From NCBI GenBank assembly GCA_965249515.1, contig OZ252240.1, positions 4,150,693-4,214,692 of the forward strand: 64,000 nt of DNA, in the 5' to 3' direction. Numbering within the stretch: the first letter of the stretch is position 1; every line of letters begins with the position of its first letter. The DNA is from Capsulimonadaceae bacterium (lineage in GTDB: Bacteria; Armatimonadota; Armatimonadia; Armatimonadales; Capsulimonadaceae). This document shows positions 12,099 to 57,506 of the stretch, in pieces. The position numbers and the translations under genes are program-made. The notes beneath the pieces were generated by a model. It made no database searches. It was not told where the DNA came from and was given only the letters and a program-made list of their open reading frames with translations.

Positions 12099-12219
12099 AA
12101 CCTCACCCAAGCCCTCTCCTTAAGCAAGGAGAGGGAGCCAGATTTAAGACAAAGAATGCGTTTCTCCTAACCCTCTCCTTTGCTAAGGAGAGGGTGGCAA
12201 CTTGTTGCCGGGTGAGGTT
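12099..12219. repeat. composite palindromic element, family A (CCTCACCC ... CCCTCTCC hairpins)
   Basis: Outer arms AACCTCACCC (12099-12108) and GGGTGAGGTT (12210-12219). Inner hairpins at 12112-12135 and 12171-12194 (CCCTCTCCTTAAGCAAGGAGAGGG-like). Confidence 0.85.
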
Positions 12220-12263
12220 CCTCGTCTGGGGGTCTTATGAGCGCCTCTGAGGCGAAGAAAAGC

Positions 12264-13748
12264 TCATGGCAGTGTCGTCTCGCCCATCAAGTAGCGGTCG
12301 CACTCGCGGGCCGCGCCCCGGCCCTCGTTGAAGGCCCAGACCACGAGGCTCTGGCCGCGCCGGGCATCACCCGCCGCGAAAACGCCGGGGATCGAAGTCG
12401 CATACTCGCCGTACTCCGCCTGCACATTGGAGCGATCGTCGCAGGCAACCCCAAGCTGCTTGAGCAGCGCGTCTTCCGGCCCGAGAAAGCCCATCGCCAG
12501 CAGGACCAGTTGTGCAGGGCTGATTTTTTCGGTGCCGGGGACTTCCACCGGCACGAAGCGCCCATTCTCGTCATGCTGCCAGTCAATCTCGACTGTGTGA
12601 ACCTCTTTGACATGCCCATCGGCGTCGCCGACAAACTTCTTCGCAGTCGTGCAGTAAACGCGCGGGTCGGAGCCGAAGACTGCCAGCGCTTCTTCCTGCC
12701 CGTAGTCCAGCCGGTAGACTTTCGGCCACTGCGGCCACGGGTTATTCGCAGCGCGGGTCATCGGCGGCTTCGGCAGGATTTCTAATTGAACCAGCGAGTG
12801 GCAGCCGTGGCGCATCGAAGTCCCGACACAGTCCGTGCCGGTGTCGCCGCCGCCGATGACGACCACATCTTTGCCTTCTGCCGAGATGAAGTTCTTGTTT
12901 GGCTCGCCGTCAAGCACATTTTGGGTATTGGCCGTCAGGAAGTCCATCGCAAAGTGGATGCCGTGCAGGTCGCCGCCTTCGATCTCCGACAGGCCGCGCG
13001 GCTTGGTCGCGCCGGTCGCCAGCACGACGGCATCGAACTCTTTCAAGAGCAGGTCGGCGGCGTAGTCCTTGCCGACTTCGGTATTGGTTAAAAACGCAAT
13101 CCCTTCCGATTCCATCAGCTTGACCCGGCGATCTACCAGCTCCTTGCCGAGCTTCATGTTCGGGATACCGTAGGTCAGCAGGCCACCGACACGGTCGCCG
13201 CGCTCGAAGACCGTGACGAGATGCCCCGCTTTGTTGAGCTGGGCGGCGGCGCACAAGCCCGCCGGCCCGGAGCCGATCACCGCGACCCGCTTGCCGGTGC
13301 GCTTTGCGGGCGGCTCGGCGACTACCCAGCCCTCTTCGAAGCCTTTGTCAATAATCGCGCACTCGATATTTTTGATTGTCACCGCCGGGCCGCTGATGCC
13401 GAGGACGCAGGCTCCTTCGCAGGGCGCGGGGCAGACCCGGCCCGTGAACTCCGGGAAGTTGTTGGTCTTATGCAGCCGGTCCAGCGCCTCGCGCCATAGT
13501 CCCCGGTAAACCAAGTCGTTCCATTCGGGAATCAGGTTGTTGATCGGGCAGCCCGACGCCATGCCGTTCAGGGTGGTGCCGGTGTGGCAGAACGGAATGC
13601 CGCAGTCCATGCACCGTGCGCCCTGCTCGCGCAGCTTATGCTCGGCGAGATGCAGGTGGAACTCTTTCCAGTCCTTGATTCGCTCGGTGGCCGTGCGGTC
13701 GAGCGGCAGCTCGCGCAGGTATTCGATAAAGCCGGTTGGTTTTCCCAT
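12264..13748 (-). CDS. gltD: glutamate synthase small subunit (NADPH)
   Basis: [13 protein letters not shown]..., Cys clusters, [17 protein letters not shown] dinucleotide fold, [15 protein letters not shown]. Confidence 0.95.
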
Positions 13749-13772
13749 GTGTGGTTGTTTCTAAAGATAGGC

Positions 13773-13885
13773 ACCGGCACTGGAAGTGCCGGTCTACTGT
13801 CGCATCAAAGTCGCTCCGCGACTGAAGACTCTGGAGTCGCGGAGCGACTTTCATTCCAAAGTAGACCGGCACTTCCAGTGCCGGT
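13773..13885. repeat. nested palindromic element between gltB and gltD (three hairpin modules)
   Basis: 25-nt arms at 13773-13797 and 13861-13885 are mutually complementary, and each is itself a CCGGCAC/GTGCCGG hairpin. Central 16-bp stem at 13807-13822 and 13836-13851. Confidence 0.9.
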
Positions 13886-13908
13886 TCCAAATGCTTGTTT
13901 CAGTACGC

Positions 13909-18507
<4,599 letters not shown>

Positions 18508-18685
18508 TGCGGGAGCGGTTCCTCTTCTAAGTGACGGATTCGGGGTCTCAGCCTGATTGGCTCAAAGCCCGAATTGGGAGAGGATTGTAGCACAATGCAA
18601 GCCCTCCCGTCAATCGTTTTGGCGGCGCATTTTTCGGCGTCGTTGTTCGCCCGATTTATAGAGAGAATATGGGTAGAATACACGC

Positions 18686-19711
18686 ATGTTCGCCCTGATT
18701 GACCTGCCGCTTTTAGATACCTTCGCCCGCCCGCTGCGCGACCTGCGGATTTCGGTGACCGACCGCTGCAATTTCCGCTGCACCTATTGTATGCCGAAGG
18801 AGATTTTCGGGCGTGATTTTGCCTTCCTGCCCTCCAAAGAGCTTCTTTCTTTCGAGGAAATTACGCGCCTCGCCCAAATCGCCGTCAGCCTCGGCGTCGA
18901 AAAAATCCGCCTGACCGGCGGCGAGCCGCTGCTCCGCCGTGACATCGAGACGCTCGTCGGTCAGCTTGCCCGAATTGATGGCCTGCGGGACCTGACCTTG
19001 ACCACCAACGGGGCACTGCTTGTCAAAAAAGCCGCCGCGCTCAAATCTGCGGGTCTGGGCCGAGTCACCGTGAGCCTCGACTCACTCGATGACGCGGTTT
19101 TCCAAGCGATGAACGACGTTGCGTTCCCTGTTGGGCGCGTGCTCGACGGCATCGCGGCGGCGTCGGAAGTCGGCCTCGGCCCGGTCAAGATCAACATGGT
19201 CGTCAAGCGCGGCGTCAACGAAGACAGCATCGTCCCCATGGCGCGACGCTTCCACGGCACGAACTGCATCCTGCGCTTCATCGAATTCATGGATGTCGGC
19301 GCGACCAACGGCTGGCAGCTCCAAGACGTTGTTCCGGCCTCTGAGATCGTCTCGCGCATCAGCGCCGAGCTGCCTCTGGAGCCAATCCCGCCGAACTACC
19401 CCGGCGAAGTTGCGAGGCGCTTTCGCTACGCCGACGGTGGCGGCGAAATCGGCGTGATCACATCCGTGACCCAGCCCTTCTGCGGCGACTGCTCCCGCGC
19501 CCGCCTGTCTGCCGAAGGCAAGCTCTACACCTGCCTCTTCGGGTCGGACGGCTTCGACTTCCGCGCCCTGCTGCGCGGCGGCGCATCTGACCGCGAGATT
19601 GCCAATGCCCTGCGCGGCGTCTGGTCGAAGCGCAGCGACCGCTACTCCGAAATCCGCACGGAAGAAACCGCCCACCGCCCCAAAGTCGAGATGTCGCATA
19701 TCGGGGGCTAA
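18686..19711 (+). CDS. moaA: GTP 3',8-cyclase (molybdenum cofactor biosynthesis protein A)
   Basis: Radical-SAM [11 protein letters not shown]-terminal [20 protein letters not shown] cluster motif. Confidence 0.95.
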
Positions 19712-19726
19712 GAAAGGCGTGTAACC

Positions 19727-20020: not shown

Positions 20021-20052
20021 AATTACCCTGCCCTGAACGGCATGGCTTTAAA

Positions 20053-24218: not shown

Positions 24219-24336
24219 CCCTGGTCTGGAAGACCGGGTCTTTAAAAAGCATAATGTCCGCTTCGCGGACGCCGAATACGTCCCGGAGGGACATCCTGCA
24301 CTGTTAAAGCCCCGGTCTTCCAGACCGGGCCAGGGT
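24219..24336. repeat. palindromic hairpin cluster, family B
   Basis: CCCTGGTCTGGAAGACCGGG (24219-24238) pairs with CCCGGTCTTCCAGACCGGG (24311-24329). Inner hairpins GTCCGCttcGCGGAC (24256-24270) and GTCCCggaGGGAC (24280-24292). Confidence 0.85.
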
Positions 24337-25432: not shown

Positions 25433-25525
25433 GGAGGCGTTCGGGGTCTGGTGGCCCCCCTGGTCTTCAAAACCAGTGTCCCGCATTACGCGGGGGGTGG
25501 GTTCGATTCCCATCCGCTTCCGCCA
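25433..25525 (+). tRNA. selC: tRNA-Sec (anticodon UCA)
   Basis: 8-nt acceptor strands (GGAGGCGT / CCGCTTCC). 6-bp D stem with a 4-nt loop (GGGGTC-TGGT-GGCCCC). Anticodon arm CTGGT-CTTCAAA-ACCAG. Long variable arm CCCGC-ATTAC-GCGGG. 5-bp T stem with TTCGATT loop. G-CCA end. 93 nt. Confidence 0.92.
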
Positions 25526-31759: not shown

Positions 31760-31889
31760 AATTTCTACATTCGAGGACGACCGCCGGAATTCCTGCGTGA
31801 TTGGCGGTGTGAAAACGGGGGTAGAACAGGGAACAAGAAACTCATTCTCCACGTATTTCACACTTCCATCACTTAGAGGTAAGACCCTT

Positions 31890-34800
31890 ATGTTCAACCT
31901 GCCCTTGTTCTCCAAGAGCGGCAAGCCGGACGCGAAAAAGCGCGAGGCGCAGCCGTTTAGCCGTCAAACGCTGACGAAGAATGCCCGGATTGATGGCGCG
32001 ACCGTGACCGAAAGTGTCTGCCCCTACTGCGCCGTCGGGTGCGGCCAGCAGATCTACACTAAGGGCGGCCAGATTATTGATATCGAGGGCAACCCGCACT
32101 CGCCCATCAACGAAGGTACGCTCTGCCCAAAAGGCGCGAATGTTTTCCAATTGGCGCGTAACCCCAATCGCGTGAAGAAGGTCCTCTACCGCGCCCCGTA
32201 TGCGACCGAGTGGGAAGAAAAGCCGCTCGACTGGGCGATGGAGCGGATCGCGCAGAAAGTGTTCGATGCCCGCGAGCGCGGCTGGACCGAGAAGGACGAC
32301 GACGGGCGAACGATCAGCGCGGTCCGCAATATCGGCACCCTCGGCGGAGCGACGCTCGACAACGAAGAAAATTACCTCATCAAAAAGCTCTTCACCGCCG
32401 GCCTCGGCGTCCTCTCAGTTGAGAACCAAGCCCGCATTTGACATTCTGCTTCCGTGCCCGGTCTGGGCGCGACATTCGGCCGCGGCGCGGCCACTTCCTA
32501 TCAGCAGGATCTTCAAAACAGCGACGCGATTCTCATTATGGGTTCCAACATGGCTGAGGCGCACCCGGTCGGCTTCCGCTGGCCGATGAAGGCCAAAGCG
32601 AACGGCGCAAAGCTCATCCATGTGGACCCGCGCTACACGCGCACGTCGGCAATGGCCGACCAGCACGTCCAGATTCGGGCCGGCTCGGATATCGCGTTTT
32701 TAGGCGCACTGGTGAACTACGTTCTCACCCATGAACGCTGGTTCAAAGAATATGTGCTCGCCTACTCGAACGCCTCGACAATTGTAGACCCGCAGTTCCA
32801 GGACACTGAAGCGCTCGACGGCTTATTCAGCGGCTACGATGCCGAGACGCGCTCCTACGACCCATCTGTAGGCCACTGGAGCTACAAGCAGCCGGAAGAT
32901 AGCGAGGGTGAGGAAGGCAGCGGCGACACGCAGGGCAAGATGGCCGCGAACTCTCACGGCCTGCACGGGCACGGCATCGAAGGCGGGGCCAGCACTCACA
33001 GTTCGCCGCGAGCCAATTCAACCACGGACAAGGCTGGCTATATTCAGCGCGACGAAACGCTGCAAGACCCAAACTGTGTCATGCAGCTTCTGCGTCGTCA
33101 CTATGAGCGCTACACGCCGCAAATGGCGGCGGACATCTGCGGCTGTACGCCTGAGCAGGTTATCCAAGTCGCGGAAACCCTGTGTGACAACTCAGGACGG
33201 GAGCGCACCAGCGCCATCTGCTACGCGGTCGGCTGGACCATGCACACGACGGGCGTACAGATTATCCGCACGGCGAGTATTCTCCAGACTCTGCTCGGCA
33301 ACATGGGCCGGCCCGGCGGCAGCATCATGGCCCTGCGCGGTCACGCCAGCATTCAAGGGTCTACGGACATTCCAACGCTCTATGACCTCCTGCCGGGTTA
33401 CCTGCCCCAGCCGACCGCCGACCCGACCCATGACACGCTGGCCGACTACGTCAAGTATGAAGGTCTGCCCACGGGATACTGGGTGCATTTCAAGGAGTTT
33501 ATGGTCAGCCTGCTCAAAGCCTACTACGGCGACGCGGCGACGAAAGACAACGACTTCCGCTACAACTGGCTGCCACGGCTGGACGATGATTACTCGATGA
33601 TCCTGGCGTTTCAGCGCATGGCGAAAGGTGATTTTGATGGCTACTTCCTGTTCGGACAAAACCCGGCGGCAGGCTCGGTCAACGCCAAAGTTGTCCGCGA
33701 GGGCCTGCGTAATTTGAAGTGGCTGGTGGTCGCCGACTGGTTCGAGACCGAAAGCGCCGTCTTCTGGAAGAACGACCCGACCGGGCCGCCCGCTACTGAC
33801 ATCGGCACCGAAGTCTTTTTCCTTCCGGCAGCGTCGTCTCCCGAGAAAGAAGGGACGCTGACAAACACGCAGCGGCTGATCCAGTGGCACGACAAAGCGA
33901 TTGACCCGCCGGGCGACTGCCGCTCCGATCTGTGGTTCCTCTACAATTTAGGCAAGCGGCTCAAAGCGCTGTACGCCGGCTCGACAGACCCAAAAGATCT
34001 GCCAATTCAGCACCTGACCTGGGACTACGACCAGGACGAGCCGGAACGACTGCCCGATGGTACGCTCAGCAGAATTGTCGGTGAACCTGATGCGCTGAAA
34101 GTCTTGCAGGAAATCAACGGCTGCCACGTCAACGAGATTGACCCGAAGACCGGCAAGCCCAAGCTGCTGTCGGGCTATTCCGAGTGCAAGGATGACGGCA
34201 CGACCGCCTGCGGCGGCTGGATTTACTCGGGGGTCACGCCGGCGCCGGAGGTCAACCGTGCCCGCGACCGGGTCCGCACCCCGGACAATCCGCTCGACCC
34301 GAATTGGGGCTACGCCTGGCCGAGCAACCGGCGCGTCCTGTATAACCGGGCGTCGGCTGACCCCGAAGGCAACCCGTGGTCCGAGCGCAAAAAGCTGATC
34401 TACTGGGACAAAGATGCCAAAAAATGGATGGGTAACGATGTCCCCGACTTTGAAGTAGGCAAAGACCCGTCGTACCGCGCACTCAAAGACGCGGTCGGCA
34501 TGGAAGCAATCGGCGGCGACCAGCCGTTTATCATGCACCCGGACGGCTTGGCCTGGCTGTTCGCGCCGGGCGGCACCAAAGACGCCCCGCTGCCGACCCA
34601 TTACGAGCCGGTCGAGTCGCCGGTTCGGAACCTGCTTTATTCTAAGACGCAGGACAACCCGACAACGCGCTACTTCGAAGGCCTGGCGGGCAACAAACTG
34701 GCCCGCTACCCGGAAAACGATTTCCCGGTGGTCGGCTGCACGTTCCGCCTGACCGAGCATTACCTGAGCGGCCCGATGTCCCGGTTCAATTCGTGGCTCA

Positions 34801-35249
34801 ACGAGCTGATGCCGGCCATGTTCATTGAAATCAGCCCGGAGCTTGCCGCCGCGCACGGCATCGAGCACGGCGGCTGGATGATCTGCGAGTCGGCGCGGGC
34901 TGCAATCGAGGCGCGGGCCATGGTCACGAAGCGCATCAAGCCGATGACCATTGACGGCAAAACGATCCACCAAGTCGGTGTCCCGTTCCAATGGGGCTTT
35001 GCCGGGGAAGTGGTCGGCAGCAGTGCCAACGACTTGACTTCACTCGTGGCCGACCCGAATGTCTCGATGCACGAGGCCAAAGTCTTCGCCTGCCGGGTCC
35101 GGGCCGGACGCCTGCCCGACCAGCCGAAGACGCCGACCAAGCCCGAGCACCGCTGGGCCAGCCGCGAGCCGGTTCCAAACACCGCCGCCGGCGCACAGCC
35201 TGAGGGCCATTTGGAGAAGTCATTGCGAAAGGACGGACCGGAGAAGTAA
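31890..35249 (+). CDS. fdnG: formate dehydrogenase catalytic subunit, selenocysteine-containing (UGA at 32439-32441)
   Basis: Track ORFs 31797-32441 and 32454-35249 are one frame: ...VENQARI-U-HSASVPGLGATFGRGA, compared with E. coli ...VDNQARV-U-HGPTVASLAPTFGRGA. CPYCAVGCG Fe-S motif. Colinear with FdnG to the C-terminus. Confidence 0.93.
32454..32470 (+). promoter_or_regulatory. bacterial SECIS hairpin of fdnG
   Basis: GUGCCC-GGUCU-GGGCGC. The GGUCU loop occupies +22 to +26 from the U of UGA, the same register as the E. coli fdhF SECIS (G23/U24) as recalled. Confidence 0.65.
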
Positions 35250-35383
35250 GAACCTACCCCCGCTCGTTCCTCACGACCCCTCCCTAAGAAGGAAGGGTAG
35301 GAATTACGCATGAAGCCTTCCGTATCTGTCTCTCACCCTTCCTTCTTAGGGAGGGGTCGTGAGGAACGAGCGGGGGTAGGTTC
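35250..35383. repeat. 134-bp palindromic element, family A, between fdnG and fdnH
   Basis: 48-nt arms at 35250-35297 and 35336-35383 are perfectly complementary. It starts at the base after the fdnG stop codon. Confidence 0.95.
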
Positions 35384-35406
35384 GCATTATCCTTGAAAGC
35401 AAAACC

Positions 35407-36276
35407 ATGATCCAGTTAAATATGCTTCGCGCGGAGGCGACGGCCAGCCTCAAAAATGCGTTCCCGCCCCAGCGCACCGAAGTCCCCGACGCCGGCCCAG
35501 ATGGGCAAGGGCAGATGGGCTTCTTCACCGACACCAGCCTGTGCATCGGCTGCAAAGCCTGCGAAGTGGCCTGCAAGCAGTGGAACCAGTTGCCGTCGGA
35601 CGGCTACAACTTTTCGGCGAAGTCCTATGACAATACCGAGCATCTTTCGGCGACCACCTGGCGGCACGTGGCGTTCCAGGAGCAAATCGGCGAGACCAGC
35701 AGCCGCTGGCTGATGATGAGCGATGTCTGCAAGCACTGCGTGGATGCCCCGTGCGTCCAGTCCTGCCCGACCGGATCGCTGATTTACAATGAATACGGCA
35801 ACGTCTATGTCCAGGCCGACATCTGCAACGGCTGCGGGTACTGCGTCTCGGCCTGCCCGTTCGGGGTCATCGCCCGGAGCGCCGAAGACGGGCACGCGCA
35901 CAAATGCACACTCTGCTACGACCGGCAAACGGTCGGCGAGACGCCCGCCTGTGCGAAGTCCTGCCCGACGGCGTCTATCCAGTTCGGCCCGGTTGATGAG
36001 CTGCGCGAGCATGCCCGCGAGCGGGTAGAAACACTCCGCGCCCAGGGCAACACGTCGGCATTTCTCTACGGGGCCGATGAAGAGTCGCTGCCGGGCTACG
36101 GCACGCTGAACTCGTTCTTTCTGCTCGAAGACCACCCAAACCGCTACAACCTGCCGGAAGCCCCGCCTCAGCCGCTGCACCAGCAGGGCAAGCGCTACGC
36201 GGCGAGCCTGCTGACGGGCCTCGCGCTCACGGCCCTGGCGGGTCTGCTGCTGTCGAAGGGGGCGACCAATGCCTGA
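35407..36276 (+). CDS. fdnH: formate dehydrogenase iron-sulfur subunit
   Basis: CIGCKACEVACKQWN, CKHCVDAPCVQSCP, CNGCGYCVSACP, CTLCYDR ferredoxin motifs. C-terminal TM helix. Confidence 0.92.
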   Translation: MIQLNMLRAEATASLKNAFPPQRTEVPDAGPDGQGQMGFFTDTSLCIGCKACEVACKQWNQLPSDGYNFSAKSYDNTEHLSATTWRHVAFQEQIGETSSRWLMMSDVCKHCVDAPCVQSCPTGSLIYNEYGNVYVQADICNGCGYCVSACPFGVIARSAEDGHAHKCTLCYDRQTVGETPACAKSCPTASIQFGPVDELREHARERVETLRAQGNTSAFLYGADEESLPGYGTLNSFFLLEDHPNRYNLPEAPPQPLHQQGKRYAASLLTGLALTALAGLLLSKGATNA

Positions 36277-49740: not shown

Positions 49741-52086
49741 ATGGCACGTGACCCTTCTGCCCTAACTTCATCATTTTCCAAGTCGCTCGGACGCCTGCCG
49801 CGCCGCCGCAAGCCGCGCGGCGCTTCGGGACGCCGCGACCTCCCCTTTTGGCGTTTGCAGCCGCTGCGTGACCGGCTGGCCGGCCTCGATTTCCTCCGTG
49901 TCCTGCTCCTGCTCGGCACCGTCCTTGCGCTGTCCGCCCTGCTTTCCCTGCACCTGCTGCCGGACAAAGTCGCGCTGCGAACCGGCGAAGTCAGCGGTCA
50001 GGACATCCGGGCGCTCCGCACCGTGCGCTTTCTCGATGACGGCGCGACGGACGCTCTGCGCTCGGCGGCAGCGGCCCGCGTCGAGCCGGTCTACTCGTCC
50101 GCCCATGCGGCGTCGGAGGCCGATGAAACCATCTCCGACGCTTACCAGCATTTGCGCCGCGACCAAGTTGCCGGCACCGATCCCGCCCGCGCTGCATCGG
50201 ACCTGCGCCGCGAAGTCGGCGTTGTCGTCCTGCCCGCCGCTCTGACACCCCTTCTCAGCCCCCGCGCCGGTGCGTACCACCTGGACCAGGCCGAGCGGCT
50301 CACCCATCAGGCCGTGCATGATGCGATGGACCGGGAGATCCGCGACGACCGCCCCGGCGACCTCGCCGAAGCGCGAATCGTCGCCGTGTCCAGGCTGTCG
50401 GCCTCTATGCTGCCCCGCACCCATATCCCCGCCGCCCTCGCCATTGCCCGTGCCGTGGTCCAGCCAAACCGACTGCTCGACAAGAACAAGACTGCCGGGG
50501 CTAGGGCAAGCGCCGAGCGCCTGGTCGCCCCGGTCTACAGCCAGATATTTGCCGGAGACATCGTCGTGCGGAGCGGCCAGATTGTTACCCCCGCCACGAT
50601 TGCGAAGCTGCGGGCGCTCGGCCTGCAAAACCCGCGCCTCGACCCGGTGATGGCTGCAAGCGTTACCGGCTTGGTGCTGTTCATGGTCGGCCTGGTCTGC
50701 GCCTGGCTGGCCCGCGACTACCCGCGCGTGTATGCGTCCACCAAGACCCTGCTGCTCCTGTCACTCCTGGTCGGGCTGGGCATTCTCGGTCTCCGTTTGG
50801 GAAGCGCTGTGCTTGGGGTGCGGCTGTCCGCGTCGCAGTTCGGCTATGTCGGGATGCTCTGGGTCGCGGCCACGGGAATGCTGATTGCAGCCCTGATCAA
50901 GCCGCGTGTTGCGCTGCTGGTCACCGCGCTGCTGGCGGCGCAGTCGGGCGTGATCCTCGGCAACGATCTGCGCTTTTCGGTGCTGACTTTGCTGTCCACA
51001 TGGGTCGCCATTTATGCCGTCTCCGACCTGCGGAGCCGCACCGATGTTCTGCGGGCCGGCGGCATTTTGTGCGCGGCCAACGTCGCGATGAGCCTGCTGG
51101 TCGGCCAGCTCCAGGGAGATGTGCGGGCGGACATCGGTCAGTCCGTGATCTGGGCGTTCTTTTCCGGTCTCCTCGCCGTCGCATTGTTTGGGGTCAGCAC
51201 GGCGCTGTTCGAGCGGCTGTTCGGCATCACGACGCCGCTTGGCCTCCTGGAGCTGTCCGACCCGAACCGCCCTTTGCTGAGGCGCTTCTGCGAGGCCGCA
51301 CCTGGCACCTACACTCACTCTATTCTGGTCGGAAATCTGGCTGTCAGCGCCGCCGAAGCCATCGGCGCGGATGCGCTTCTGTGCCGTGTGGGGGCGCTGT
51401 ACCATGATTTGGGCAAGATGCAGCGGGCGCAGTTCTTTGTCGAGAACCAGGCCGGCGGCGACAACGCCCACGAGCGCCTGAACCCGTCCCTGTCGGCGTT
51501 AGTCGTGACCGCCCATGTGCGCGACGGGTTGGAGATGGCCGACCGGGAAAAGCTGCCGCCCGTCATCAAATCATTCATCACTGAGCATCACGGCACGAGT
51601 TTGATCCGCTACTTCTACCATCAGCAGTGCGCCGGGGACGACTGCGAGGCCGCGCCGGTTTTGGAGCAGCAGTTCCGCTACGGCGGTCCGAAGCCGCAGA
51701 GCCGCGAAACCGCCATCCTGATGCTGGCTGACAGTGTCGAAGCGGCGTCGCGGACTTTGGAGCGTCCGACGCTGAGCCGCATCGAAGATCTCATCACAAA
51801 AATCATTGACGGCCACCTCGGCGATGGTCAGCTCGACGAATGCGATTTGACTCAGCGCGACCTGCGTGGTATCCGCGAAGCGTTCGCCAAATTGTTGTCG
51901 GGAATGCTGCACTCGCGCATTGACTACCCCGAGATGCTTAAAGAACCCGTGAAGAAGCCCGCCGACCTCTCCCTGCCGACACCACCTGCCAATGCCACTC
52001 TTGATTCACTGCCGGACCGCTTTGCCGCCGCCGCTGACCGCCCCAGCGATCTTGACCGCCCCGCTGGCGGCTCTCTTGCGGCATGA
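49741..52086 (+). CDS. 7TM-receptor HD-domain phosphohydrolase (PgpH/YqfF-like)
   Basis: Extracellular region, 7 TM segments, HD domain (YTHSILVGNLA...ALYHDLGKM...TEHHGTS). Start is uncertain (49657 or 49741). Confidence 0.85.
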   Translation: MARDPSALTSSFSKSLGRLPRRRKPRGASGRRDLPFWRLQPLRDRLAGLDFLRVLLLLGTVLALSALLSLHLLPDKVALRTGEVSGQDIRALRTVRFLDDGATDALRSAAAARVEPVYSSAHAASEADETISDAYQHLRRDQVAGTDPARAASDLRREVGVVVLPAALTPLLSPRAGAYHLDQAERLTHQAVHDAMDREIRDDRPGDLAEARIVAVSRLSASMLPRTHIPAALAIARAVVQPNRLLDKNKTAGARASAERLVAPVYSQIFAGDIVVRSGQIVTPATIAKLRALGLQNPRLDPVMAASVTGLVLFMVGLVCAWLARDYPRVYASTKTLLLLSLLVGLGILGLRLGSAVLGVRLSASQFGYVGMLWVAATGMLIAALIKPRVALLVTALLAAQSGVILGNDLRFSVLTLLSTWVAIYAVSDLRSRTDVLRAGGILCAANVAMSLLVGQLQGDVRADIGQSVIWAFFSGLLAVALFGVSTALFERLFGITTPLGLLELSDPNRPLLRRFCEAAPGTYTHSILVGNLAVSAAEAIGADALLCRVGALYHDLGKMQRAQFFVENQAGGDNAHERLNPSLSALVVTAHVRDGLEMADREKLPPVIKSFITEHHGTSLIRYFYHQQCAGDDCEAAPVLEQQFRYGGPKPQSRETAILMLADSVEAASRTLERPTLSRIEDLITKIIDGHLGDGQLDECDLTQRDLRGIREAFAKLLSGMLHSRIDYPEMLKEPVKKPADLSLPTPPANATLDSLPDRFAAAADRPSDLDRPAGGSLAA

Positions 52087-52468
52087 GGGCATCACAAACG
52101 ACCCGGAAATCAGCGTCGTCTTTTGCGATGACCCGTACATCCAGGCGCTGAACGCCCAGTACCGGGGCAAAGACAAGCCCACCGATGTGCTGTCATTCGC
52201 CCAGGAAGACCCGGAGATTTTAGGCGACGTCGTCCTCTCCGTCCCGACCGCCGACCGCCAAGCCAAAGCCGCCGGCTGGCCTTTAGAACACGAGATCGCC
52301 CTGCTCGGTGTTCATGGCCTCCTGCACCTGCTCGGCTACGACGACGAAACGGAAGCGGGCGCGTGGGAGATGCAGTACCGCACCGAAGCAGCTTTGAGCG
52401 AGGCTGGGATTGCCGTTCCCAAGCGCGGTCAGCACCCGTTTTTCGTGGAGGAAGTTAAAGAACCATGA
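51992..52468 (+). CDS. ybeY: rRNA maturation RNase YbeY
   Basis: LNAQYRGKDKPTDVLSF, HGLLHLLGYDD zinc motif. The track start implies a 95-nt overlap with the upstream gene, so the start is uncertain. Confidence 0.88.
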   Translation: MPLLIHCRTALPPPLTAPAILTAPLAALLRHEGITNDPEISVVFCDDPYIQALNAQYRGKDKPTDVLSFAQEDPEILGDVVLSVPTADRQAKAAGWPLEHEIALLGVHGLLHLLGYDDETEAGAWEMQYRTEAALSEAGIAVPKRGQHPFFVEEVKEP

Positions 52469-52676
52469 CATGAATGTCACGGCCAAACGGCAAAGTCGCC
52501 ACGAAGTACCGCTTCGCGGGACTCAGACCAGGGGTGTTCTCTCATCCTAACCCCGCGCCTTCCAGGTAGCCAGTGCTGACCAGTGCAGAAGCGGTGTTTT
52601 GTGGCGTCTGCGCCGTCTACCCCAATAAAGCCCTAGCCGTGCGTTTCAACGCATTGTGTTCGTATCAGGTACAAAT

Positions 52677-53123
52677 ATGCCTTCCGTCGAAATCGTCTGC
52701 ATTGGTCAGCCAGAGCCGATTGTTTTTGAGAATATGCCATTTCGGATTGACGCAGAAAACCGGCTAGTCTCGCAGCGCACCCCGTCGCCTCTGTTCCAAA
52801 CCGACTTTGATTTATTGACAGGCTGTATCTACCATTTAATCAAGCAGTCGAGAGGCGCTTGTACTGCGGTTGAATTGCTCGACGCTTGGTGGGAGGAATT
52901 GCGCTTCAAGCCGGAGTATGTGCCAAACATCCAGCAGATATTGAGCGAGCTGCTGACTGCTTCCCCGGAAGGAAAAGTGCTGTTTACAAGCGACTACCAA
53001 TTCGGCCCGAACACCAAACGGTACAAGCGGCCTTTAACGCTTGGCAATTTTTGGGCGCTCCACGCAGAGGGTAAATTGCGGGCCAACGCCCTTTATCCAC
53101 TCACGCGGGACAAAATCACTTAG
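52677..53123 (+). CDS. hypothetical protein, 148 aa
   Basis: ORF in visibly AT-richer DNA between ybeY and dgkA. No family recognised. A GTG at 52656 is an alternative start. Confidence 0.5.
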   Translation: MPSVEIVCIGQPEPIVFENMPFRIDAENRLVSQRTPSPLFQTDFDLLTGCIYHLIKQSRGACTAVELLDAWWEELRFKPEYVPNIQQILSELLTASPEGKVLFTSDYQFGPNTKRYKRPLTLGNFWALHAEGKLRANALYPLTRDKIT

Positions 53124-53143
53124 CGAAGTTCGCTGATCAATCT

Positions 53144-53866
53144 ATGCGCCAAGTACCGAGGCCGAAAAACCATCTTGATTCGTTCCGCTATGCTGTGGAA
53201 GGCATTGTTCATACCTTCCGCACGCAGAAACACATGCGGTTCCACTTCTTCACGGTCGTGCTGGTACTGCTTATCGGGCTGCTGCTGCGGCTGTCACGGG
53301 TGGAAATGGCCGTGCTGTTTATTGTCGTATCGGGCGTTTTGGTTACCGAAATGCTCAACACGGCGATTGAAAGTGTCGTGGACATGATCACGCAGGCATA
53401 TCACCCGCTGGCGAAGCTCGCCAAAGACATTGCGGCGGGGGCGGTGCTGATTGCCAGCATCACGGCGGCGGTTGTCGGCGGGATCTTGTTTTTTGGCTCT
53501 AACAAGATTGCCCAGTTACACCTGGACATCAAGCGTGACCCGCTGCCGGTGACGGTGATCCTCACGGTCGTGGTGCTGGTGCTGATTATCGTTTTGATCT
53601 CGAAGGTGCTGGGGCAGAAGGGATCTATTCTTTCGGGCGGGATTGTCAGCGGCCATGCGGCGGTGTCGTTTTTTCTGGCCTCGACGCTGATCTACCGGGC
53701 GATGGACTACTTCACCGGCATACTGGCGCTGCTGCTGGCGTTTCTCGTGGCTCAAAGCCGGGTAGAGGGGAAGATACACACGCTTCAGGAAGTAATCATC
53801 GGCGGCCTGCTCGGGATTTTGTTCACCTGCGGCATCTATTTCGTGCATATCTTTCCAGTTCACTGA
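53144..53866 (+). CDS. dgkA: diacylglycerol/undecaprenol kinase (DgkA) fused to a PAP2-like C-terminal module
   Basis: The N-terminal 120 aa are colinear with DgkA (EMLNTAIESVVD, AKDIAAGAVLIA). The C-terminal half has VSGHA and SRVEGKIHTLQE, resembling PAP2 motifs C2 and C3. Confidence 0.8.
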   Translation: MRQVPRPKNHLDSFRYAVEGIVHTFRTQKHMRFHFFTVVLVLLIGLLLRLSRVEMAVLFIVVSGVLVTEMLNTAIESVVDMITQAYHPLAKLAKDIAAGAVLIASITAAVVGGILFFGSNKIAQLHLDIKRDPLPVTVILTVVVLVLIIVLISKVLGQKGSILSGGIVSGHAAVSFFLASTLIYRAMDYFTGILALLLAFLVAQSRVEGKIHTLQEVIIGGLLGILFTCGIYFVHIFPVH

Positions 53867-53882
53867 CCCCTATCTACCGACC

Positions 53883-55256
53883 ATGCAGCCATCCCATCTT
53901 TACGCCCTGTTTGCCCTGTTTCTACTGACCCTCCTCAATGCGTTTTTTACGCTGGCGGAGATCGCGCTGAATACTGTCCGCAATGCGCGGCTGCAAGACT
54001 TGATCGAAGAAGGCGGAACGGATGCCGGGGCGGCAGGCAGCGCCCAGCAGCTCCTGCGGCAGCCGACACGGGTGGTCGCGACGGTGCAGGTCGGCATCAC
54101 ACTGGCGTCTTTTGGGGTTGCCGCTATCGCCGCCGCCGTGCTGGCTCCCGCCTGGGCGGGCGTCATCCCGCCGGGCCTGACTCGCGCCCCGGTGCGCTTT
54201 ATGACGGTCGCGCTGACTTTGGTGGCCGCGCTGTTCACCATCGTCATCGGCGAGATTATTCCGCGCTCGGTCGCGCTGAAGCGGCCCGACGAAACGGCGC
54301 TTTTGATCGCCCGTCCGCTGCGCTTTTTTATTGTTGCGCTTGCCCCGCTGGCGACATTCGCGCTTGGGATGTCTTCCCTGCTAGTCCGGCCCTTCGGCCT
54401 GACCGCGACTTTCGCCGCGCCGATGATTACCGAAGAAGAATTGCGGGCGATGCTTGAGGCAAGCGCCCAGTCCGGGGCAATTGAGGAAGACGAAAAAGAG
54501 ATTATTCGTAACGTTATCTCGTTCGGCGATACCGATGTCCGGCAGGTGATGACCCCGCGCATTGATGTGAAGGCGATTGACGCCGGGGCGGGTCTGCCCG
54601 CGCTGCTCGCGCTGATTGTCGAGAGCGGCCACTCGCGCATTCCCGTCTATGAGAGCAGCGTGGACAGCGTCGTCGGCATCGTCCATGCCAAAGATTTGCT
54701 GCCGGCCCTGTCGCGCGGCGAGCGGGATTTAGACCTGCGCCCGCTGATGCGTACCCCCTTGGTGGTGCCGGAAAACCGGCGCATTGACGACCTGCTCGAC
54801 GAATTTCGCCGTTCCAGCGTCCAAATGGCGATTATTCAGGATGAGTACGGCGGCACGGCGGGCCTCGTCACGGTCGAAGATTTGCTGGAAGAGCTGGTCG
54901 GGGAAATCCAGGACGAATACGACCAGGAAAACGCCCAGTTCCAGACGCTTGGGCCGAACATCTACCGTGTGGACGCCCGCATGGCGATTGACGACCTGAA
55001 CGATTTATTAGACCTGGACCTGCCGCACGAGGATTTTGACACCATTGGCGGCTTCGTCTTCGGTCAGTTTGGCCGTCAGCCCGAAGCCGGCGAGTCGGTC
55101 GCCTACGAGAACTTGGAGCTGCGGGTCGAGAAGACCGATGGCCGCCGGGTAGACGAGATCACGCTTACGGTGCTGCCCGACGGAATAGGAACGGATGAGG
55201 ATGAGCGCGGCGCGGGAGCCTCTCATCTGACACCTCTCAAGCCGACATCTGCTTGA
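53883..55256 (+). CDS. hemolysin-family CNNM/CorC protein (DUF21, CBS pair, CorC_HlyC)
   Basis: 4-TM DUF21 N-terminus, a CBS pair, and the C-terminal DTIGGFVFGQFGRQPEAGE transporter-associated domain. Confidence 0.9.
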   Translation: MQPSHLYALFALFLLTLLNAFFTLAEIALNTVRNARLQDLIEEGGTDAGAAGSAQQLLRQPTRVVATVQVGITLASFGVAAIAAAVLAPAWAGVIPPGLTRAPVRFMTVALTLVAALFTIVIGEIIPRSVALKRPDETALLIARPLRFFIVALAPLATFALGMSSLLVRPFGLTATFAAPMITEEELRAMLEASAQSGAIEEDEKEIIRNVISFGDTDVRQVMTPRIDVKAIDAGAGLPALLALIVESGHSRIPVYESSVDSVVGIVHAKDLLPALSRGERDLDLRPLMRTPLVVPENRRIDDLLDEFRRSSVQMAIIQDEYGGTAGLVTVEDLLEELVGEIQDEYDQENAQFQTLGPNIYRVDARMAIDDLNDLLDLDLPHEDFDTIGGFVFGQFGRQPEAGESVAYENLELRVEKTDGRRVDEITLTVLPDGIGTDEDERGAGASHLTPLKPTSA

Positions 55257-55581
55257 GGCGCTGAGTGCGGCGCCATTCGCGCTGCATGCTCTGGGTCAGA
55301 GTCAGTTTGGCCCGCTTGACATCGTGCAGGCTGCGCGATAGGTCGCGGTGCAGGGCGCAGGCCGCTTTGACCGCCTCAAGCTCGGTGGTCTTGACATAAA
55401 CTTTGCGGACCCGGCTGCCTTCACGCCAGATGCGGTAATGGTAAGGGCCATGCGGCTTTCCATTCTGGCAGCGGCAGCCGGCTTTTCCGCAGCGAATAAA
55501 CTGCGGGCAGACTTCTCCTTCCAGCGGCTCAATCTCAGTCGAATCAATCTCGGGTAAGTCAGTGTCGGTGTGTGAGTTCAA
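55237..55581 (-). CDS. DUF6788-like zinc-ribbon protein
   Basis: CGKAGCRCQNGKPHGPYHYRIWREGSRVRKVYV matches the recalled DUF6788 signature. Confidence 0.55.
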   Translation of the reverse strand: MNSHTDTDLPEIDSTEIEPLEGEVCPQFIRCGKAGCRCQNGKPHGPYHYRIWREGSRVRKVYVKTTELEAVKAACALHRDLSRSLHDVKRAKLTLTQSMQREWRRTQRLKQMSA

Positions 55582-55714
55582 TACAGCACCCTCACGGCAA
55601 GTATGCCAGCTTTCTAATTTTCCCCATTGTACCCCGTGCCGGCCACACCATAACTTTTTTTGGGCTGCAACTTTTTCCGCCGTTCTGTGTCATAGTTTTC
55701 AAGAGGAACCTACC

Positions 55715-56860
55715 GTGAAACAATCGCCGCTGCTTTTTTTGATGACCGGGGCGGCCCTGGCGCTTTCCGGCTGCTCCCATAACAGCCCGCCGGTGGCAAT
55801 GGCCCCGCCGACCAACCCCGTGACGATCTCTCAGCCGCAAAACCCAATGGCCGGGCAGGACCCAAACAGTCAAATGGCGGGGCAAAACGGTGCGTATAAC
55901 TGGACCGAGGTGCCGGCCAATCAGCAGGTGCCGATTACACGGGCCGTCTTCGACCAGGGCGGCTACCAGCTTTATTCTTCGCAGGGCACGATTGTCGTGC
56001 CGTTCGCAAACCAGAATATGTATGTGATGAAGTTCGGCCAGTCTCAGACCGGACAAATGTACTTCGTCAACAGCGGCGCATTCCCGACTCTCTTTATCCC
56101 GCCGGGCGCGGGCCTGCAAAACGCCGCACAGCAAGGGGCGACCTGGTATCCGTTCCCGCAGAACTACAACTATACCAGCCCGGTGTATGTCGGCCTTGCC
56201 CCGAGCTGGTCGGCATTCTCAGGCATGGGCTGGTATCCGGGCATGTCCTATTACGGCGGTTACTACGGCTACAGCCCGTACAGCATCGTCGGGCCGATGA
56301 TCGGCCTGCACTTTCTGATTGGCGGCTCGCCGTATTACGGCTGGAACTCGTACCACAGCTACTACAATAGCCACCCCGGCTACGCCCCGATGCGCGTGGT
56401 CAACCGCACGGTCTACAACCAGGCCGCGCGGTCATCGAGCTTCGGCTCAGGCCGTTCGTTCGGCAGCCGCACGTCGGGCAGCGGCAGCTCCGGCAGCTTT
56501 GGGCGGCGCTCCTTCGGCTCCTCTGGGACGACATTCGGCGGCGGTCGCTCTTCCTTCGGCGGCGGCCGTCCGGCGTCCGGCAGCAGCGGCTCGTTTGGAC
56601 GCGGCCCGTCAAGCTTCGGCGGCTCGTTCGGCGCGGGACGCCGCTCGCTCCCCACGGCATCGCCCACGCCATCTTCCAGTGGCGGCTCCTTCGGCAGCCG
56701 GCCCGCGTTCGGGGGAGGCGGATCGTTTGGAGGCGGTTCCAGCAGCCCACGCCCGTCATTCGGCGGTGGGTCTTTCGGGGGCGGGGGACGGTCCTCGTTC
56801 GGCGGGGGCAGCTTCGGCGGCGGCGGTCGGTCTTTTGGCGGCGGCGGACGGCGTCGCTGA
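55715..56860 (+). CDS. lipoprotein with Tyr/Gly-rich core and Arg/Gly/Ser/Phe low-complexity tail
   Basis: GTG start after AAGAGGA. Lipobox LALSGC. About 140-aa tail of SFGGGGR-type repeats ending GGGGRRR. Confidence 0.65.
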   Translation: MKQSPLLFLMTGAALALSGCSHNSPPVAMAPPTNPVTISQPQNPMAGQDPNSQMAGQNGAYNWTEVPANQQVPITRAVFDQGGYQLYSSQGTIVVPFANQNMYVMKFGQSQTGQMYFVNSGAFPTLFIPPGAGLQNAAQQGATWYPFPQNYNYTSPVYVGLAPSWSAFSGMGWYPGMSYYGGYYGYSPYSIVGPMIGLHFLIGGSPYYGWNSYHSYYNSHPGYAPMRVVNRTVYNQAARSSSFGSGRSFGSRTSGSGSSGSFGRRSFGSSGTTFGGGRSSFGGGRPASGSSGSFGRGPSSFGGSFGAGRRSLPTASPTPSSSGGSFGSRPAFGGGGSFGGGSSSPRPSFGGGSFGGGGRSSFGGGSFGGGGRSFGGGGRRR

Positions 56861-56898
56861 CTTTCGGCATTACGGTTCATTTTTGAGGAGACCACACC

Positions 56899-57348
56899 AT
56901 GAACGATATGATCTTTCAGACCGGCGGCGATTGGGAAAACACGACCCTCTACAATAACGGCGTCGAAGTGCCGGCGGCGCAGCTTTTTGTCGAGCTTCGC
57001 GCCGGCCGCGACGAATATGACAACCCGGTGCAGGGCGGCATCTATGACGGCACCGATTTCACCGCCATTGTCCGCACCCAGGATAACCCAGAAACTGCGC
57101 TCGACATCCTGCCCGGCAAGCTGACCCTGACCTTTCCCGGTCACCAGATTGTGCTGGAAAACTATCACCCGATGGTCGCGCTTGACTCCACCCGCGTCTG
57201 GTACAATGGTCAGGACATCACGAACCGCGTCGTGGATGTTTATGTAGATGTCAACGCCCAGGACGACCTCGTCAAAGCGTTCGTCACGGTCTATAAGCCG
57301 CACTTTATTTCGACCGACGAAGTGATTACGTATACGATTGTGGCGTAG
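56899..57348 (+). CDS. hypothetical protein, 149 aa
   Basis: GGAGA RBS. No family recognised. Confidence 0.5.
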   Translation: MNDMIFQTGGDWENTTLYNNGVEVPAAQLFVELRAGRDEYDNPVQGGIYDGTDFTAIVRTQDNPETALDILPGKLTLTFPGHQIVLENYHPMVALDSTRVWYNGQDITNRVVDVYVDVNAQDDLVKAFVTVYKPHFISTDEVITYTIVA

Positions 57349-57349
57349 G

Positions 57350-57506
57350 GACCTCACCCCGCTGCTCCGCAGCGACCCTCTCCTTAAGCAAGGAGAGGGT
57401 AGGAATAATTCGGAGAAGGACCCGGATGGGGCCGATACCTAGCTGTCTTCTCTTCACCCTCTCCTTGCTTAAGGAGAGGGTCGCTGCGGAGCAGCGGGGT
57501 GAGGTC
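57350..57506. repeat. 157-bp palindromic element, family A
   Basis: 50-nt arms at 57350-57399 and 57457-57506 are perfectly complementary. Each arm ends in a CCCTCTCC..GGAGAGGG hairpin. It begins 2 nt after a stop codon. Confidence 0.95.

Follow-up and report, generated by a model that had tools for sequence, protein, structure and literature searches.

Intergenic palindromes of a Capsulimonadaceae bacterium as probable gene-less relatives of a DUF559-associated, BoxC-like mobile element

The 64,000-nucleotide (nt) stretch of Capsulimonadaceae bacterium contig OZ252240.1 analyzed here (the window; phylum Armatimonadota) carries three related palindromic elements, referred to as family A. Copy 1 (35250-35383, plus strand) begins at the base after the stop codon (35249) of a molybdopterin oxidoreductase catalytic-subunit gene and is followed, in the same operon, by the genes for a 4Fe-4S subunit, starting at 35407, and an NrfD-type subunit. 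Copy 2 (57350-57506, plus strand) starts 1 nt past the stop codon (57348) of a 149-amino-acid gene and lies upstream of the Shine-Dalgarno sequence and start codon (57530) of a 174-amino-acid gene. Copy 3 (12099-12219, minus strand), which is short and asymmetric, is found between a gltD-like gene (12264-13748, minus strand) and a small minus-strand open reading frame (ORF) starting at 12053. All are intergenic (3/3) and all are inverted pairs (3/3), and no further family-A copy was found within the window. On our best reading, the three loci represent copies of a mobile, non-coding palindrome in which each arm is one unit of the type described in Escherichia coli as BoxC, PIT or TM_ECO.

In copy 1, the left arm (35250-35298) and the right arm (35335-35383) enclose an asymmetric centre of 36 nt (35299-35334), while copy 2 consists of a left arm at 57350-57400, a 55-nt centre at 57401-57455 and a right arm at 57456-57506. 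The two arms are complementary at 49/49 positions in copy 1 and at 51/51 in copy 2, in agreement with the 48-50 nt of perfect complementarity per copy that a first-pass annotation of the window had claimed. When the window is shuffled (n = 20), the longest perfect inverted repeat measures only 11-16 nt, against the 51 nt observed, and chance is thus ruled out as the cause of the arm complementarity. Copy 1 is predicted to fold at -113.9 kcal/mol as RNA (z = -18) and copy 2 at -78.5 kcal/mol as DNA (z = -16). The outer words GAACCTACCCCCGCT / GACCTCACCCCGCT, the mini-hairpin at the inner end of the arm and the GCATT located 3′ of the right arm are present in both copies, and their centres open with (T)AGGAAT and close with TCTCTC or TCTCTTC; every motif named by the first-pass annotation in support of a shared architecture was therefore found. 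That annotation also judged the arms of the two copies to be about 70% alike by eye. The divergence is real, but the figure is not, since a gapped alignment gives 42/53 identical positions (79%). All 11 arm differences between copies 1 and 2, indels included, are mirrored in the partner arm (11/11), as expected from the compensatory divergence that had been proposed. Its third, shorter relative is likewise a genuine one, though asymmetric and unlike the other two. Copy 3 is closed by a 10-bp outer stem (12099-12108 / 12210-12219) and contains two CCCTCTCCTT-N4-AAGGAGAGGG hairpins (12112-12135 and 12171-12194) on either side of a centre at 12136-12170, with an extra mini-hairpin, GGCAACTTGTTGCC (12196-12209), limited to one arm. 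Its predicted fold is multi-branched (-67.3 kcal/mol, z = -8), and its centre is oriented in the same way as the surrounding minus-strand genes. Sequence analysis gave no evidence of a small RNA arising from the element centre.

Each arm is built of three modules: an outer C-rich tract, a variable mini-hairpin linker and an innermost pyrimidine/purine hairpin. The C-rich module reads ACCTCACCCC, with ACCTCACCC(C) as its outermost block, and the opposite arm carries the same modules as reverse complements, ending in GGGGTGAGGT. The innermost hairpin has a 5′ arm made wholly of pyrimidines and a 3′ arm made wholly of purines, the window stems being CCCTCTCCTT/AAGGAGAGGG or CCCTCCCT/AGGAAGGG. On the plus strand of copy 2, these modules correspond to the C-rich ‘third-strand’ tract ACCTCACCC of the left unit at 57351-57359 (partner GGGTGAGGT at 57497-57505), the variable mini-hairpin or ‘loop 2’, CGCTGC-TCC-GCAGCG-A, at 57360-57375 (mirror copy at 57481-57496), and the polypyrimidine/polypurine hairpin CCCTCTCCTT-AAGC-AAGGAGAGGG at 57376-57399, with a second such hairpin, carrying the complementary loop GCTT, at 57457-57480; the GCATT tail after the right arm occupies 57507-57511. 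The mini-hairpin linker is CGCTGC-TCC-GCAGCG in copy 2, TCGT-TCCTC-ACGA in copy 1 and GGCAAC-AA-GTTGCC in copy 3. Since the sub-modules are themselves palindromic, two folds are open to each element: a single long hairpin, or a clover of small hairpins that the outer stem closes. The first-pass annotation saw the overall structure correctly but missed both these sub-palindromes inside each arm and the BoxC/PIT/TM_ECO identity of the unit.

This identity follows from the way in which the tract and the hairpin match each other. In copy 2, GGGTGAGGT and the purine arm AGGAGAGGG are compatible with the purine-motif triplet rule at 9/9 positions. Scored with one script, copies 2 and 3 fit the rule at 9/9 positions and copy 1 at 7/8, and a unit in the pepA-holC spacer of E. 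coli at 9/9. The latter reads CCCTCACCC-TAA-CCCTCTCCC-TAA-GGGAGAGGG, which is the same arrangement as that of the window unit, and the MG1655 annotation shows no repeat feature there. Use of the E. coli 16-mer GGAGAGGGTTAGGGTG as a literature query led to Holder et al. 2015 (PMC4666352) and to a G-quadruplex preprint (10.1101/032615), and through them to the BoxC repeat of the 1990s, later re-described as PIT (potential intrastrand triplex) and as TM_ECO; earlier work on BoxC and PIT by Bergler et al. and by Hoyne and Maher is cited in PMC4666352. TM_ECO is defined by the pattern CCCTCNCCC N3-6 GGGNGAGGG N3 GGGNGAGGG, was searched for with loops of 1-6 nt, and has 23 copies in MG1655, all of them intergenic and arranged five times as inverted pairs (PMC4666352). 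According to the same study, the single strand forms a stable purine-motif triplex in vitro, none being detected in vivo; the repeat is unstable from strain to strain and is associated with local genomic instability; deletions at palindromic sites tend to keep a hairpin; and no mobility functions were ever found near TM_ECO (PMC4666352).

The window elements have in common with BoxC/PIT/TM_ECO the succession of pyrimidine arm, purine arm and G-rich tract with G.G-C, A.A-T and T.A-T triplets, core words that are nearly alike (CCCTCTCC / GGAGAGGG / GGGTGAGG), a strictly intergenic location and an arrangement as inverted pairs on opposite strands (all three window copies fit both), and instability of the locus, the sites of copies 1 and 2 being empty in relatives. 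They differ in the stem, which is CCCTCTCCTT/AAGGAGAGGG in the window and CCCTCNCCC/GGGNGAGGG in BoxC, and in the second loop, which is 3 nt long there and is here a variable mini-hairpin of 15-19 nt. In addition, the window pairs have perfectly complementary arms of 49-51 nt, their host belongs to the Armatimonadota, and the link to DUF559 described below is not in the paper on TM_ECO (PMC4666352). Within the window, the second loop measures 15-16 nt in 5/6 arms, and one copy 3 arm has a 3-nt loop (AAG). The published pattern is not matched by any of the window elements, and a second loop of 15-19 nt explains why a search with loops of 1-6 nt would miss them. Given their own stem words and a hairpin where BoxC has a 3-nt second loop, we classify the window elements, on sequence criteria, as a variant of BoxC/PIT/TM_ECO that lies outside the TM_ECO sequence family proper.

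The linker that replaces the second loop deserves a closer description. Across 140 units, its length is bimodal, at either 2-5 nt or approximately 15-19 nt. Long linkers have a folding free energy of -3 kcal/mol or lower in 26/40 cases, and at least 4 terminal pairs are formed in 18/29, compared to 10% of shuffles; for the copy 2 mini-hairpin the values are -9.1 kcal/mol and, for its shuffles, -2.3 kcal/mol. The linkers of other copies differ in sequence and keep the stem, with several base-pair types occurring at each stem position. Such a pattern of co-variation indicates that the structure of the mini-hairpin linkers is conserved while their sequence turns over.

Comparison of orthologous sites shows that the elements are inserted sequences. 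The relatives used are designated by locus (L) numbers. The site of copy 1 was compared in relatives whose downstream-gene protein is 85-90% identical. The orthologous junction is a 4-nt spacer with no element in L135 and L136, holds an unrelated palindrome with arms GAAGTCCCCCCGCCCCCAATAATGGGGGAGC (family C) in L131-L133, and holds a third palindrome type, with arms GAACCCGGCCTTGAAAGGCCGGGCTACT, in L134. These palindromes, which correspond in position to 35250-35406 of the window, lie at L131 9885-10000, L133 1371-1485, L132 29-143 and L134 9844-10000. Immediately past the stop codon, the 4-20-nt gap that separates the genes of the two oxidoreductase subunits is thus a hot spot for insertion. 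At the site orthologous to that of copy 2, the spacer is 12 nt long in L137 and L138 and 22 nt in L139 (82-84% identical protein). As both sites are empty in relatives, copies 1 and 2 are insertions. Both long copies are followed, 3′ of the right arm, by a 9-nt tail that starts with GCATT and lies outside the ancestral spacer. In copy 1, where it was delimited by the orthologous spacer comparison, the tail is GCATTATCC (35384-35392, plus strand); it is absent from the ancestral spacer TTGAAAGCAnnACC that is common to the window and L131, and is probably a part of the insertion or of its target. The elements start 0-2 nt past a stop codon, or overlap it, in 6/7 cases examined, namely window copies 1 and 2, L046, L063 and the other-family palindromes in L131 and L134. 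The exception is copy 3, which lies 44 nt after the gltD-like stop codon. A position adjacent to the stop codon may be the only spot in tight operons that tolerates an insertion.

The same positions invite another explanation, in which the elements are host regulatory RNAs, that is, intercistronic hairpins that set mRNA stability or processing within operons, with the fold under selection and mobility secondary. A precedent is the REP in malE-malF, an intercistronic hairpin that affects relative mRNA stability. The three copies are all located between co-oriented genes in operon-like contexts, 4/5 composites begin 0-1 nt after a stop codon or overlap it, and the predicted RNA hairpins are very stable (to -114 kcal/mol). 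The polar centre also has the same orientation with respect to transcription in 3/3 window copies, but this has a chance probability of 0.25. Furthermore, the same operon junctions work element-free in relatives, and the presence of three unrelated palindrome families at the psrA-like/psrB-like junction (molybdopterin oxidoreductase and 4Fe-4S subunit genes) in close relatives has the look of opportunistic insertion and not of a conserved regulator. The elements lack a T-run and any site resembling a terminator or promoter, and no promoter or terminator activity was found for PIT/BoxC in E. coli in the work of Maher and colleagues, as cited in PMC4666352. No Rfam family is matched, only generic microRNA (miRNA)-hairpin models below threshold and on both strands, and the unit is common to many phyla and tied to a nuclease gene (see below). 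Taking both sides into account, we regard a regulatory origin of these hairpins as distinctly unlikely.

Several related assignments were also rejected. An intrinsic terminator does not account for the elements, since no T-run follows any copy and a terminator scan is empty at copy 2. In Rfam, nothing exceeds the gathering thresholds in the window and 8 related loci, and the plant and animal miRNA-precursor matches obtained with E-value thresholds, which are sub-threshold and occur on both strands, are artefacts of generic long hairpins. A CRISPR repeat or an integron attC site was discarded in view of the lack of an array and of a matching consensus.

The unit extends far beyond this organism. 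A pattern scan with CCCTCTCCTTNNNNAAGGAGAGGG over one genome per species yielded at least 111 loci, in which the 20 specified hairpin bases of copy 2 recur in many phyla. The hosts include Bacteroidota, Armatimonadota, Patescibacteria (candidate phyla radiation, CPR), Cyanobacteria, Chloroflexota, Acinetobacter, Binataceae and other delta-proteobacterial lineages, and others, so that Proteobacteria are among the phyla represented. ACCTCACCCC or its complement adjoins the hairpin in nearly all of these loci, even though it was outside the search pattern. The first-pass proposal of a structured mobile or regulatory element, as opposed to a decaying repeat, is supported by these results: relatives have no element at the sites of copies 1 and 2, the arms co-vary, more copies exist outside the window, and the arms are free of random mismatches.

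Single units of 61-73 nt are found in Armatimonadota as well (L080 1481-1553, L091 150-222 and L071 6420-6480). Each of them has a central polypyrimidine/polypurine hairpin with flanking mini-hairpins (two different ones in L080 and L091, one in L071) and is closed by a ACCTCACCC/GGGTGAGGT stem. L080 and L091 are predicted to fold into a cloverleaf of tRNA size (L080, -48.2 kcal/mol, z = -7). These 73-nt cloverleaf units are not tRNAs, and the reading as a tRNA-like element was rejected.

Longer relatives of the window elements carry a gene between their arms. In L111, from Capsulimonadaceae, arms complementary at 52/52 positions enclose a centre of 414 nt; in L085, from Bacteroidota, the arms match at 33/33 positions and the centre measures 555 nt. 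Both centres encode a protein of the DUF559 family (PF04480, E = 7e-32 and 1.5e-35), the gene in the long elements specifying approximately 115 amino acids. The L111 arm is identical to the long arm of window copy 3 at 49/52 positions (94%), with the same mini-hairpin. A profile search of six-frame ORFs found DUF559 in 8 of the at least 111 pattern-selected loci, in each case within 70 nt of a unit (8/8), and most of these eight ORFs stand between inverted units. The typical order is ACCTCACCCC-N-hairpin, a ribosome-binding site and ATG, DUF559, the stop codon, and hairpin-N-GGGGTGAGGT. The hosts of hairpin-linked DUF559 are Bacteroidota, Moranbacteria, Zambryskibacteria and Capsulimonadaceae, and the proteins are 42-48% identical across phyla. 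The fold of DUF559 is that of the PD-(D/E)XK nucleases, and its relatives include Vsr, a nuclease of mismatch repair, and the homing endonuclease I-Bth0305I. Its profile matches the Neisseria gonorrhoeae structure 3HRL (NGO0050) in the PDB at 2e-33 and that of I-Bth0305I (3R3P) weakly (E = 0.005), and PADLOC gives a weak ‘HEase’ match. A reading of the pyrimidine-rich centre end CTCCTAA as the remnant of a DUF559 ORF was dropped, as the same words form the ordinary third-strand/hairpin linker in gene-less units.

The association was also examined in the reverse direction, starting from DUF559 genes that were picked by protein similarity alone (16 loci in viral contigs and, in metagenomes, 80 of at least 598 confirmed). 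The viral-contig genes, mostly GC-rich and of one related type, are bracketed by inverted units that follow the same grammar with other words; in one viral group, the mini-hairpin differs from arm to arm (ACCGCGAAGCGGT and GGCGGCGAAGCCGCC), both versions being self-complementary. For the metagenomic genes, we required a perfect all-pyrimidine/all-purine, G+C-rich hairpin within 200 nt, and 61 loci had enough flanking sequence. Such a hairpin is present on both sides in 37/61 and on at least one side in 55/61 (90%), leaving 6/61 with none. Hairpin density is 157 per 29.2 kb near the DUF559 gene compared to 11 per 46.0 kb further out, a 22-fold difference. The 5′ and 3′ flanks of the gene match each other as inverted repeats (score of at least 16) in 35/75 loci and in 0/75 of the reversed-only controls. 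Among 176 hairpins, 132 are followed by a tract that obeys the triplet rule with their own purine arm, whereas the number falls to about 25 (maximum 35) when the arms are swapped. The third strand thus co-varies with the hairpin arm near DUF559 genes, and the link between the gene and the repeat is observed from both directions. Among the papers listed as mentioning DUF559, and in the literature found for BoxC, PIT and ycjD, no statement of a BoxC-DUF559 association was found.

Direct repeats of 50-150 nt flank some of the metagenomic DUF559 genes, namely those of L142, L143, L144, L154, L167, L184, L191 and L195. In the flanks that were inspected (L142, L191 and L195), each direct repeat is a whole inverted pair or an array of triplex-motif units, and the gene appears between two complete palindromes and not inside one.

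The L111 element itself lies in a hypervariable spacer between glycosyltransferase-4 and UDP-GlcNAc 2-epimerase genes of Capsulimonadaceae relatives (L111 1-720, L221-L229), which holds, depending on the relative, the DUF559 element, a HicB-like antitoxin, a ParE-like ORF or other small ORFs. In L228, a single unit is found about 120 nt from the gene. From its gene content, we interpret the spacer as a landing pad for small selfish cassettes.

E. coli K-12 offers a related arrangement. The only annotated DUF559 gene seen, ycjD, adjoins fabI, and its 3′ end is a unit-like hairpin. A BoxC repeat lies approximately 165 nt beyond this hairpin, with a duplicated ycjD 3′-end fragment between them; in L114 3204-3470 (fabI-ycjD), the duplicated piece is aatattctccagcaccgtctcc, about 25 nt in length. 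The ycjD region is absent from 2,051/5,426 complete E. coli genomes. As a clean case of presence and absence, ycjD was nevertheless rejected, given that O157:H7 carries a different island by fabI and offers no simple empty site.

The dependency between gene and repeat might be the reverse of the one that we favour. The triplex-motif pairs could spread independently, DUF559 being a homing-endonuclease-like gene that targets them or survives in them, and the window copies would then be empty targets. Apart from the distant relationship to I-Bth0305I and the weak PADLOC match, this would account for the excess of gene-less units over genes (23 TM_ECO copies vs. one ycjD in E. coli K-12; 103 of the at least 111 pattern-selected loci without a DUF559 gene, among the matches listed) and for the variable polarity of the units around the gene. 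Free-standing homing endonucleases of the I-Bth0305I/Vsr-like PD-(D/E)XK type (PDB 3R3P; Taylor et al. 2011, as cited in PMC3424549) are similar in that the sole gene of the long relatives is a small nuclease of the same fold superfamily, found in hypervariable intergenic spots beside other selfish cassettes. In contrast to homing genes, DUF559 lies outside any intron or intein, and its flanking structured repeats are also abundant without the gene. Moreover, 90% of the DUF559 genes sampled by similarity have nearby hairpins whose sequences are family-specific and co-vary, which fits co-evolution better, and no other mobility gene was found near the units, either in the fetched loci or in the E. 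coli study (PMC4666352). We therefore consider such a reversed dependency doubtful, if worth keeping in mind.

A further possibility is that the elements are ordinary REPINs moved by RAYT, a Y1 tyrosine transposase, or miniature inverted-repeat transposable elements (MITEs) of a conventional insertion sequence. REPINs are inverted doublets of small palindromes with a spacer, show compensatory changes across the hairpin, and adopt hairpin or clover folds (PMC3116915, Bertels and Rainey 2011). The present elements are likewise two inverted small palindromic units with a spacer that form a long hairpin (copies 1 and 2) or a multi-branched fold (copy 3 and the single unit L080), with compensatory changes and with many gene-less copies beside few small nuclease-type genes that have the same flanking units. 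However, the place of the Y1 (IS200/IS605-like) transposase is taken here by a PD-(D/E)XK DUF559 endonuclease, encoded between the units; the units themselves are triplex motifs of polypurine/polypyrimidine sequence in place of GTAG-tagged REPs, and they recur with a common sequence across phyla, in contrast to the lineage-specific REPs. ACCTCACCCC / GGGGTGAGGT flank the units, which have no GTAG-type 5′ tag, GTAG being confined to GGGTAGGAAT at the inner junction of copies 1 and 2. A phmmer search with E. coli RayT in 1.14 Mb of fetched DNA gave one weak match (L053, E = 4e-5) and none in the window or the Armatimonadota loci. The L053 match is at 3355-4005 of a contig from Moranbacteria in which a DUF559 gene and its unit lie about 1.7 kb away.

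MITEs such as Correia, ERIC and Nezha are also short, non-coding and intergenic, have terminal inverted repeats that form a long hairpin, are polymorphic for insertion, and have longer relatives with a gene. They differ from the present elements in that no target-site duplication and no DDE transposase parent are seen here, and in that the arms co-vary between copies, while MITE ends are conserved protein-binding sequences. A classical MITE was rejected for the lack of a target-site duplication at the boundaries of filled and empty sites and because the gene-bearing relatives encode DUF559 in place of a transposase. An origin as REPINs or MITEs appears very improbable.

The perfection of the arms requires an explanation of its own. 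In Armatimonadota, the arms are perfect in 5/5 composites from four genomes (L046, 65/65; L111, 52/52; L063, 44/44; and the window copies, 49/49 and 51/51), and arms of different composites are 60-79% alike. Part of the difference between copies is due to subfamilies, with copy 1 resembling L046, and copies 2 and 3 resembling L111 and L063. Composites outside Armatimonadota match at 39/40 (L076), 58/60 (L183) and 72/79 (L162) positions. One explanation would be youth: a palindrome made near its insertion by inverted duplication of one unit, or copied from a perfect master, would subsequently decay with no maintenance. Both long copies are indeed lineage-specific, being absent from relatives with 82-90% identical neighbouring proteins; the composites outside Armatimonadota are near-perfect and not perfect; copy 3 is asymmetric, as decay would make it; and the family-C arms in L131-L133 have 1-2 mismatches. 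Against this, the five independent Armatimonadota composites are all perfect over 44-65 nt and yet differ from each other at 21-40% of arm positions, which implies that the lineages changed both arms in step. Recent origin without maintenance is thus unlikely in our estimation.

A defect shared by copy 1 and L046 is informative in this respect. In both, the local hairpin contains a C.A mismatch on one arm and a G.T mismatch on the other, and the arm-to-arm pairing is perfect. What is preserved is therefore the identity of arm to arm and not each local fold, and the defect shows that a diverged type of palindrome was propagated with its arms matched. This points to copying between the arms at the DNA level. 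A second indication comes from the family-C (CCCCCAATAATGGGGG-type) palindrome, the 32-nt centre of which is inverted in L131 relative to L133 and L132 (31/32 positions as reverse complement) in samples that encode an identical neighbouring protein; such a flip of the centre between arms of approximately 33 nt implies, from the sequences compared, an exchange between the arms. The L132 contig opens with a fold-back of the sequence downstream, probably an artefact of assembly at the palindrome.

Template switching at quasi-palindromes, or mismatch repair in a hairpin, would yield matched arms that drift in sequence without any selection. The elements are similar to the products of quasi-palindrome template-switch mutagenesis, as studied by Ripley and the Lovett laboratory, in that an imperfect repeat arm is corrected against the other. 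This is a mutational process and not an element family, however, and its action here is suggested by the mirrored defects and the flipped sister centre. Selection for a cruciform or hairpin recognized by a nuclease would also yield perfect arms. Considered alone, the co-variation of the arms would fit selection, templated regeneration and recent origin alike.

The reading that we prefer is that the window loci are gene-less, mobile, BoxC-like relatives of a DUF559-associated selfish element, with arms that are kept identical by templating at the DNA level, and we would give it a probability of roughly 60%. On one strand, the basic unit is composed of a pyrimidine arm, a loop, a purine arm, a spacer and a G-rich tract that fits the purine-motif triple-helix rule, the spacer being a small hairpin of variable sequence in the Armatimonadota lineage. 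Two inverted units around a short polar centre give the hairpin or cruciform of 134-157 nt, or the alternative clover fold. Within operons, these elements insert where a few bases separating a stop codon from the following ribosome-binding site are permissive, and the window copies would be the gene-less counterparts of elements in which inverted units bracket the DUF559 gene of about 115 amino acids. The DUF559 nuclease may cut or nick the structured unit once it is extruded, and repair or copying from another element may then spread the units and sometimes the gene as well, by a chemistry akin to transposition or homing. The identity of the arms may be due to one arm templating the other; candidate routes are a template switch at quasi-palindromes, correction of mismatches once the hairpin is extruded, and recombination between the arms. 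Of this account, the anatomy, the fit to the triplex-motif grammar, the insertion polymorphism, the two-way DUF559 association and the co-variation of arms and mini-hairpins were observed, while the part played by the nuclease, the chemistry of movement and the reason for the perfect arms are proposed.

A number of points weigh against this account. Polarity is non-uniform, with the third strands pointing towards the DUF559 gene in about two thirds of cases and away from it in the others, and whole palindromes occur as long direct repeats on the two sides of some DUF559 genes; as a consequence, no single simple element structure fits all of the loci. No DUF559 gene was found within the 64-kb window. 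The L111 ORF has no in-frame ATG or GTG before the conserved N-terminus and may, to judge from this, be degenerate at its 5′ end. Among the relatives around L111, no pair of gene-filled and gene-less alleles at one site was found, and no target-site duplication is visible at the boundaries of the filled and empty sites of copies 1 and 2. The connection of DUF559 with the repeat is one of genomic association. In E. coli, Holder et al. detected no triplex in vivo, and the earlier work that they cite found no promoter or terminator activity (PMC4666352). Finally, the perfection of the arms could partly reflect a young age.

A broader proposal is more tentative, and we hold it at somewhat less than even odds. 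DUF559 proteins, including YcjD and NGO0050, may be the nucleases of an unrecognized pan-bacterial class of selfish elements with triplex/hairpin ends, and the BoxC, PIT and TM repeats, the window palindromes included, may be its non-autonomous progeny.

The window also contains palindromes of other sequence families. A second family, based on CCTGGTCTGGAAGACCGGG-type mini-hairpins, is represented at 24220-24329, with 26-nt arms that are 92% complementary and a 58-nt spacer, and at 58599-58690; both palindromes lie just 3′ of the stop codons of plus-strand genes (24210 and 58549), and a relative of this type with arms GAACCCGGCCTTGAAAGGCCGGGCTACT is the one that occupies the copy 1 site in L134. 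A near-perfect palindrome of 119 nt (13770-13888; 59-nt arms, 88% complementary, 1-nt spacer) belongs to a different sequence family and fills the gap between a minus-strand ORF (13909-18507) and the gltD-like gene at 12264-13748. In addition, the molybdopterin oxidoreductase gene upstream of copy 1 is split by an in-frame TGA (32439-32441) into 31797-32441 and 32454-35249, in the context ...ARI-TGA-HSAS.... A selenocysteine tRNA gene is located at 25433-25521, 7 kb upstream of the TGA, and selB- and selD-like genes are found nearby in relatives. The split oxidoreductase is probably a selenocysteine-containing, formate-dehydrogenase-like protein.

BoxC/PIT/TM_ECO repeats have been known in E. 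coli since the 1990s with no explanation of what makes or spreads them, and DUF559 is a very widespread domain of unknown function, with YcjD as its E. coli K-12 member. The two-way association in Armatimonadota, Bacteroidota, CPR, Proteobacteria and metagenomes joins these two unknowns in one testable hypothesis and offers a candidate protein for the repeats, with tractable material at hand in E. coli ycjD and in a protein of solved structure (3HRL). For genome annotation, such elements directly after stop codons inside operons may be mistaken for regulatory hairpins or microRNA-like structures. The palindromes also provide a natural case of inverted repeats that diverge between copies and remain self-complementary, which is relevant to the tolerance and maintenance of palindromes in bacterial chromosomes. 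If the proposed link is true, REPIN-RAYT would have a counterpart of the same type, one that relies on a PD-(D/E)XK nuclease and whose structured DNA ends restore their own complementarity.

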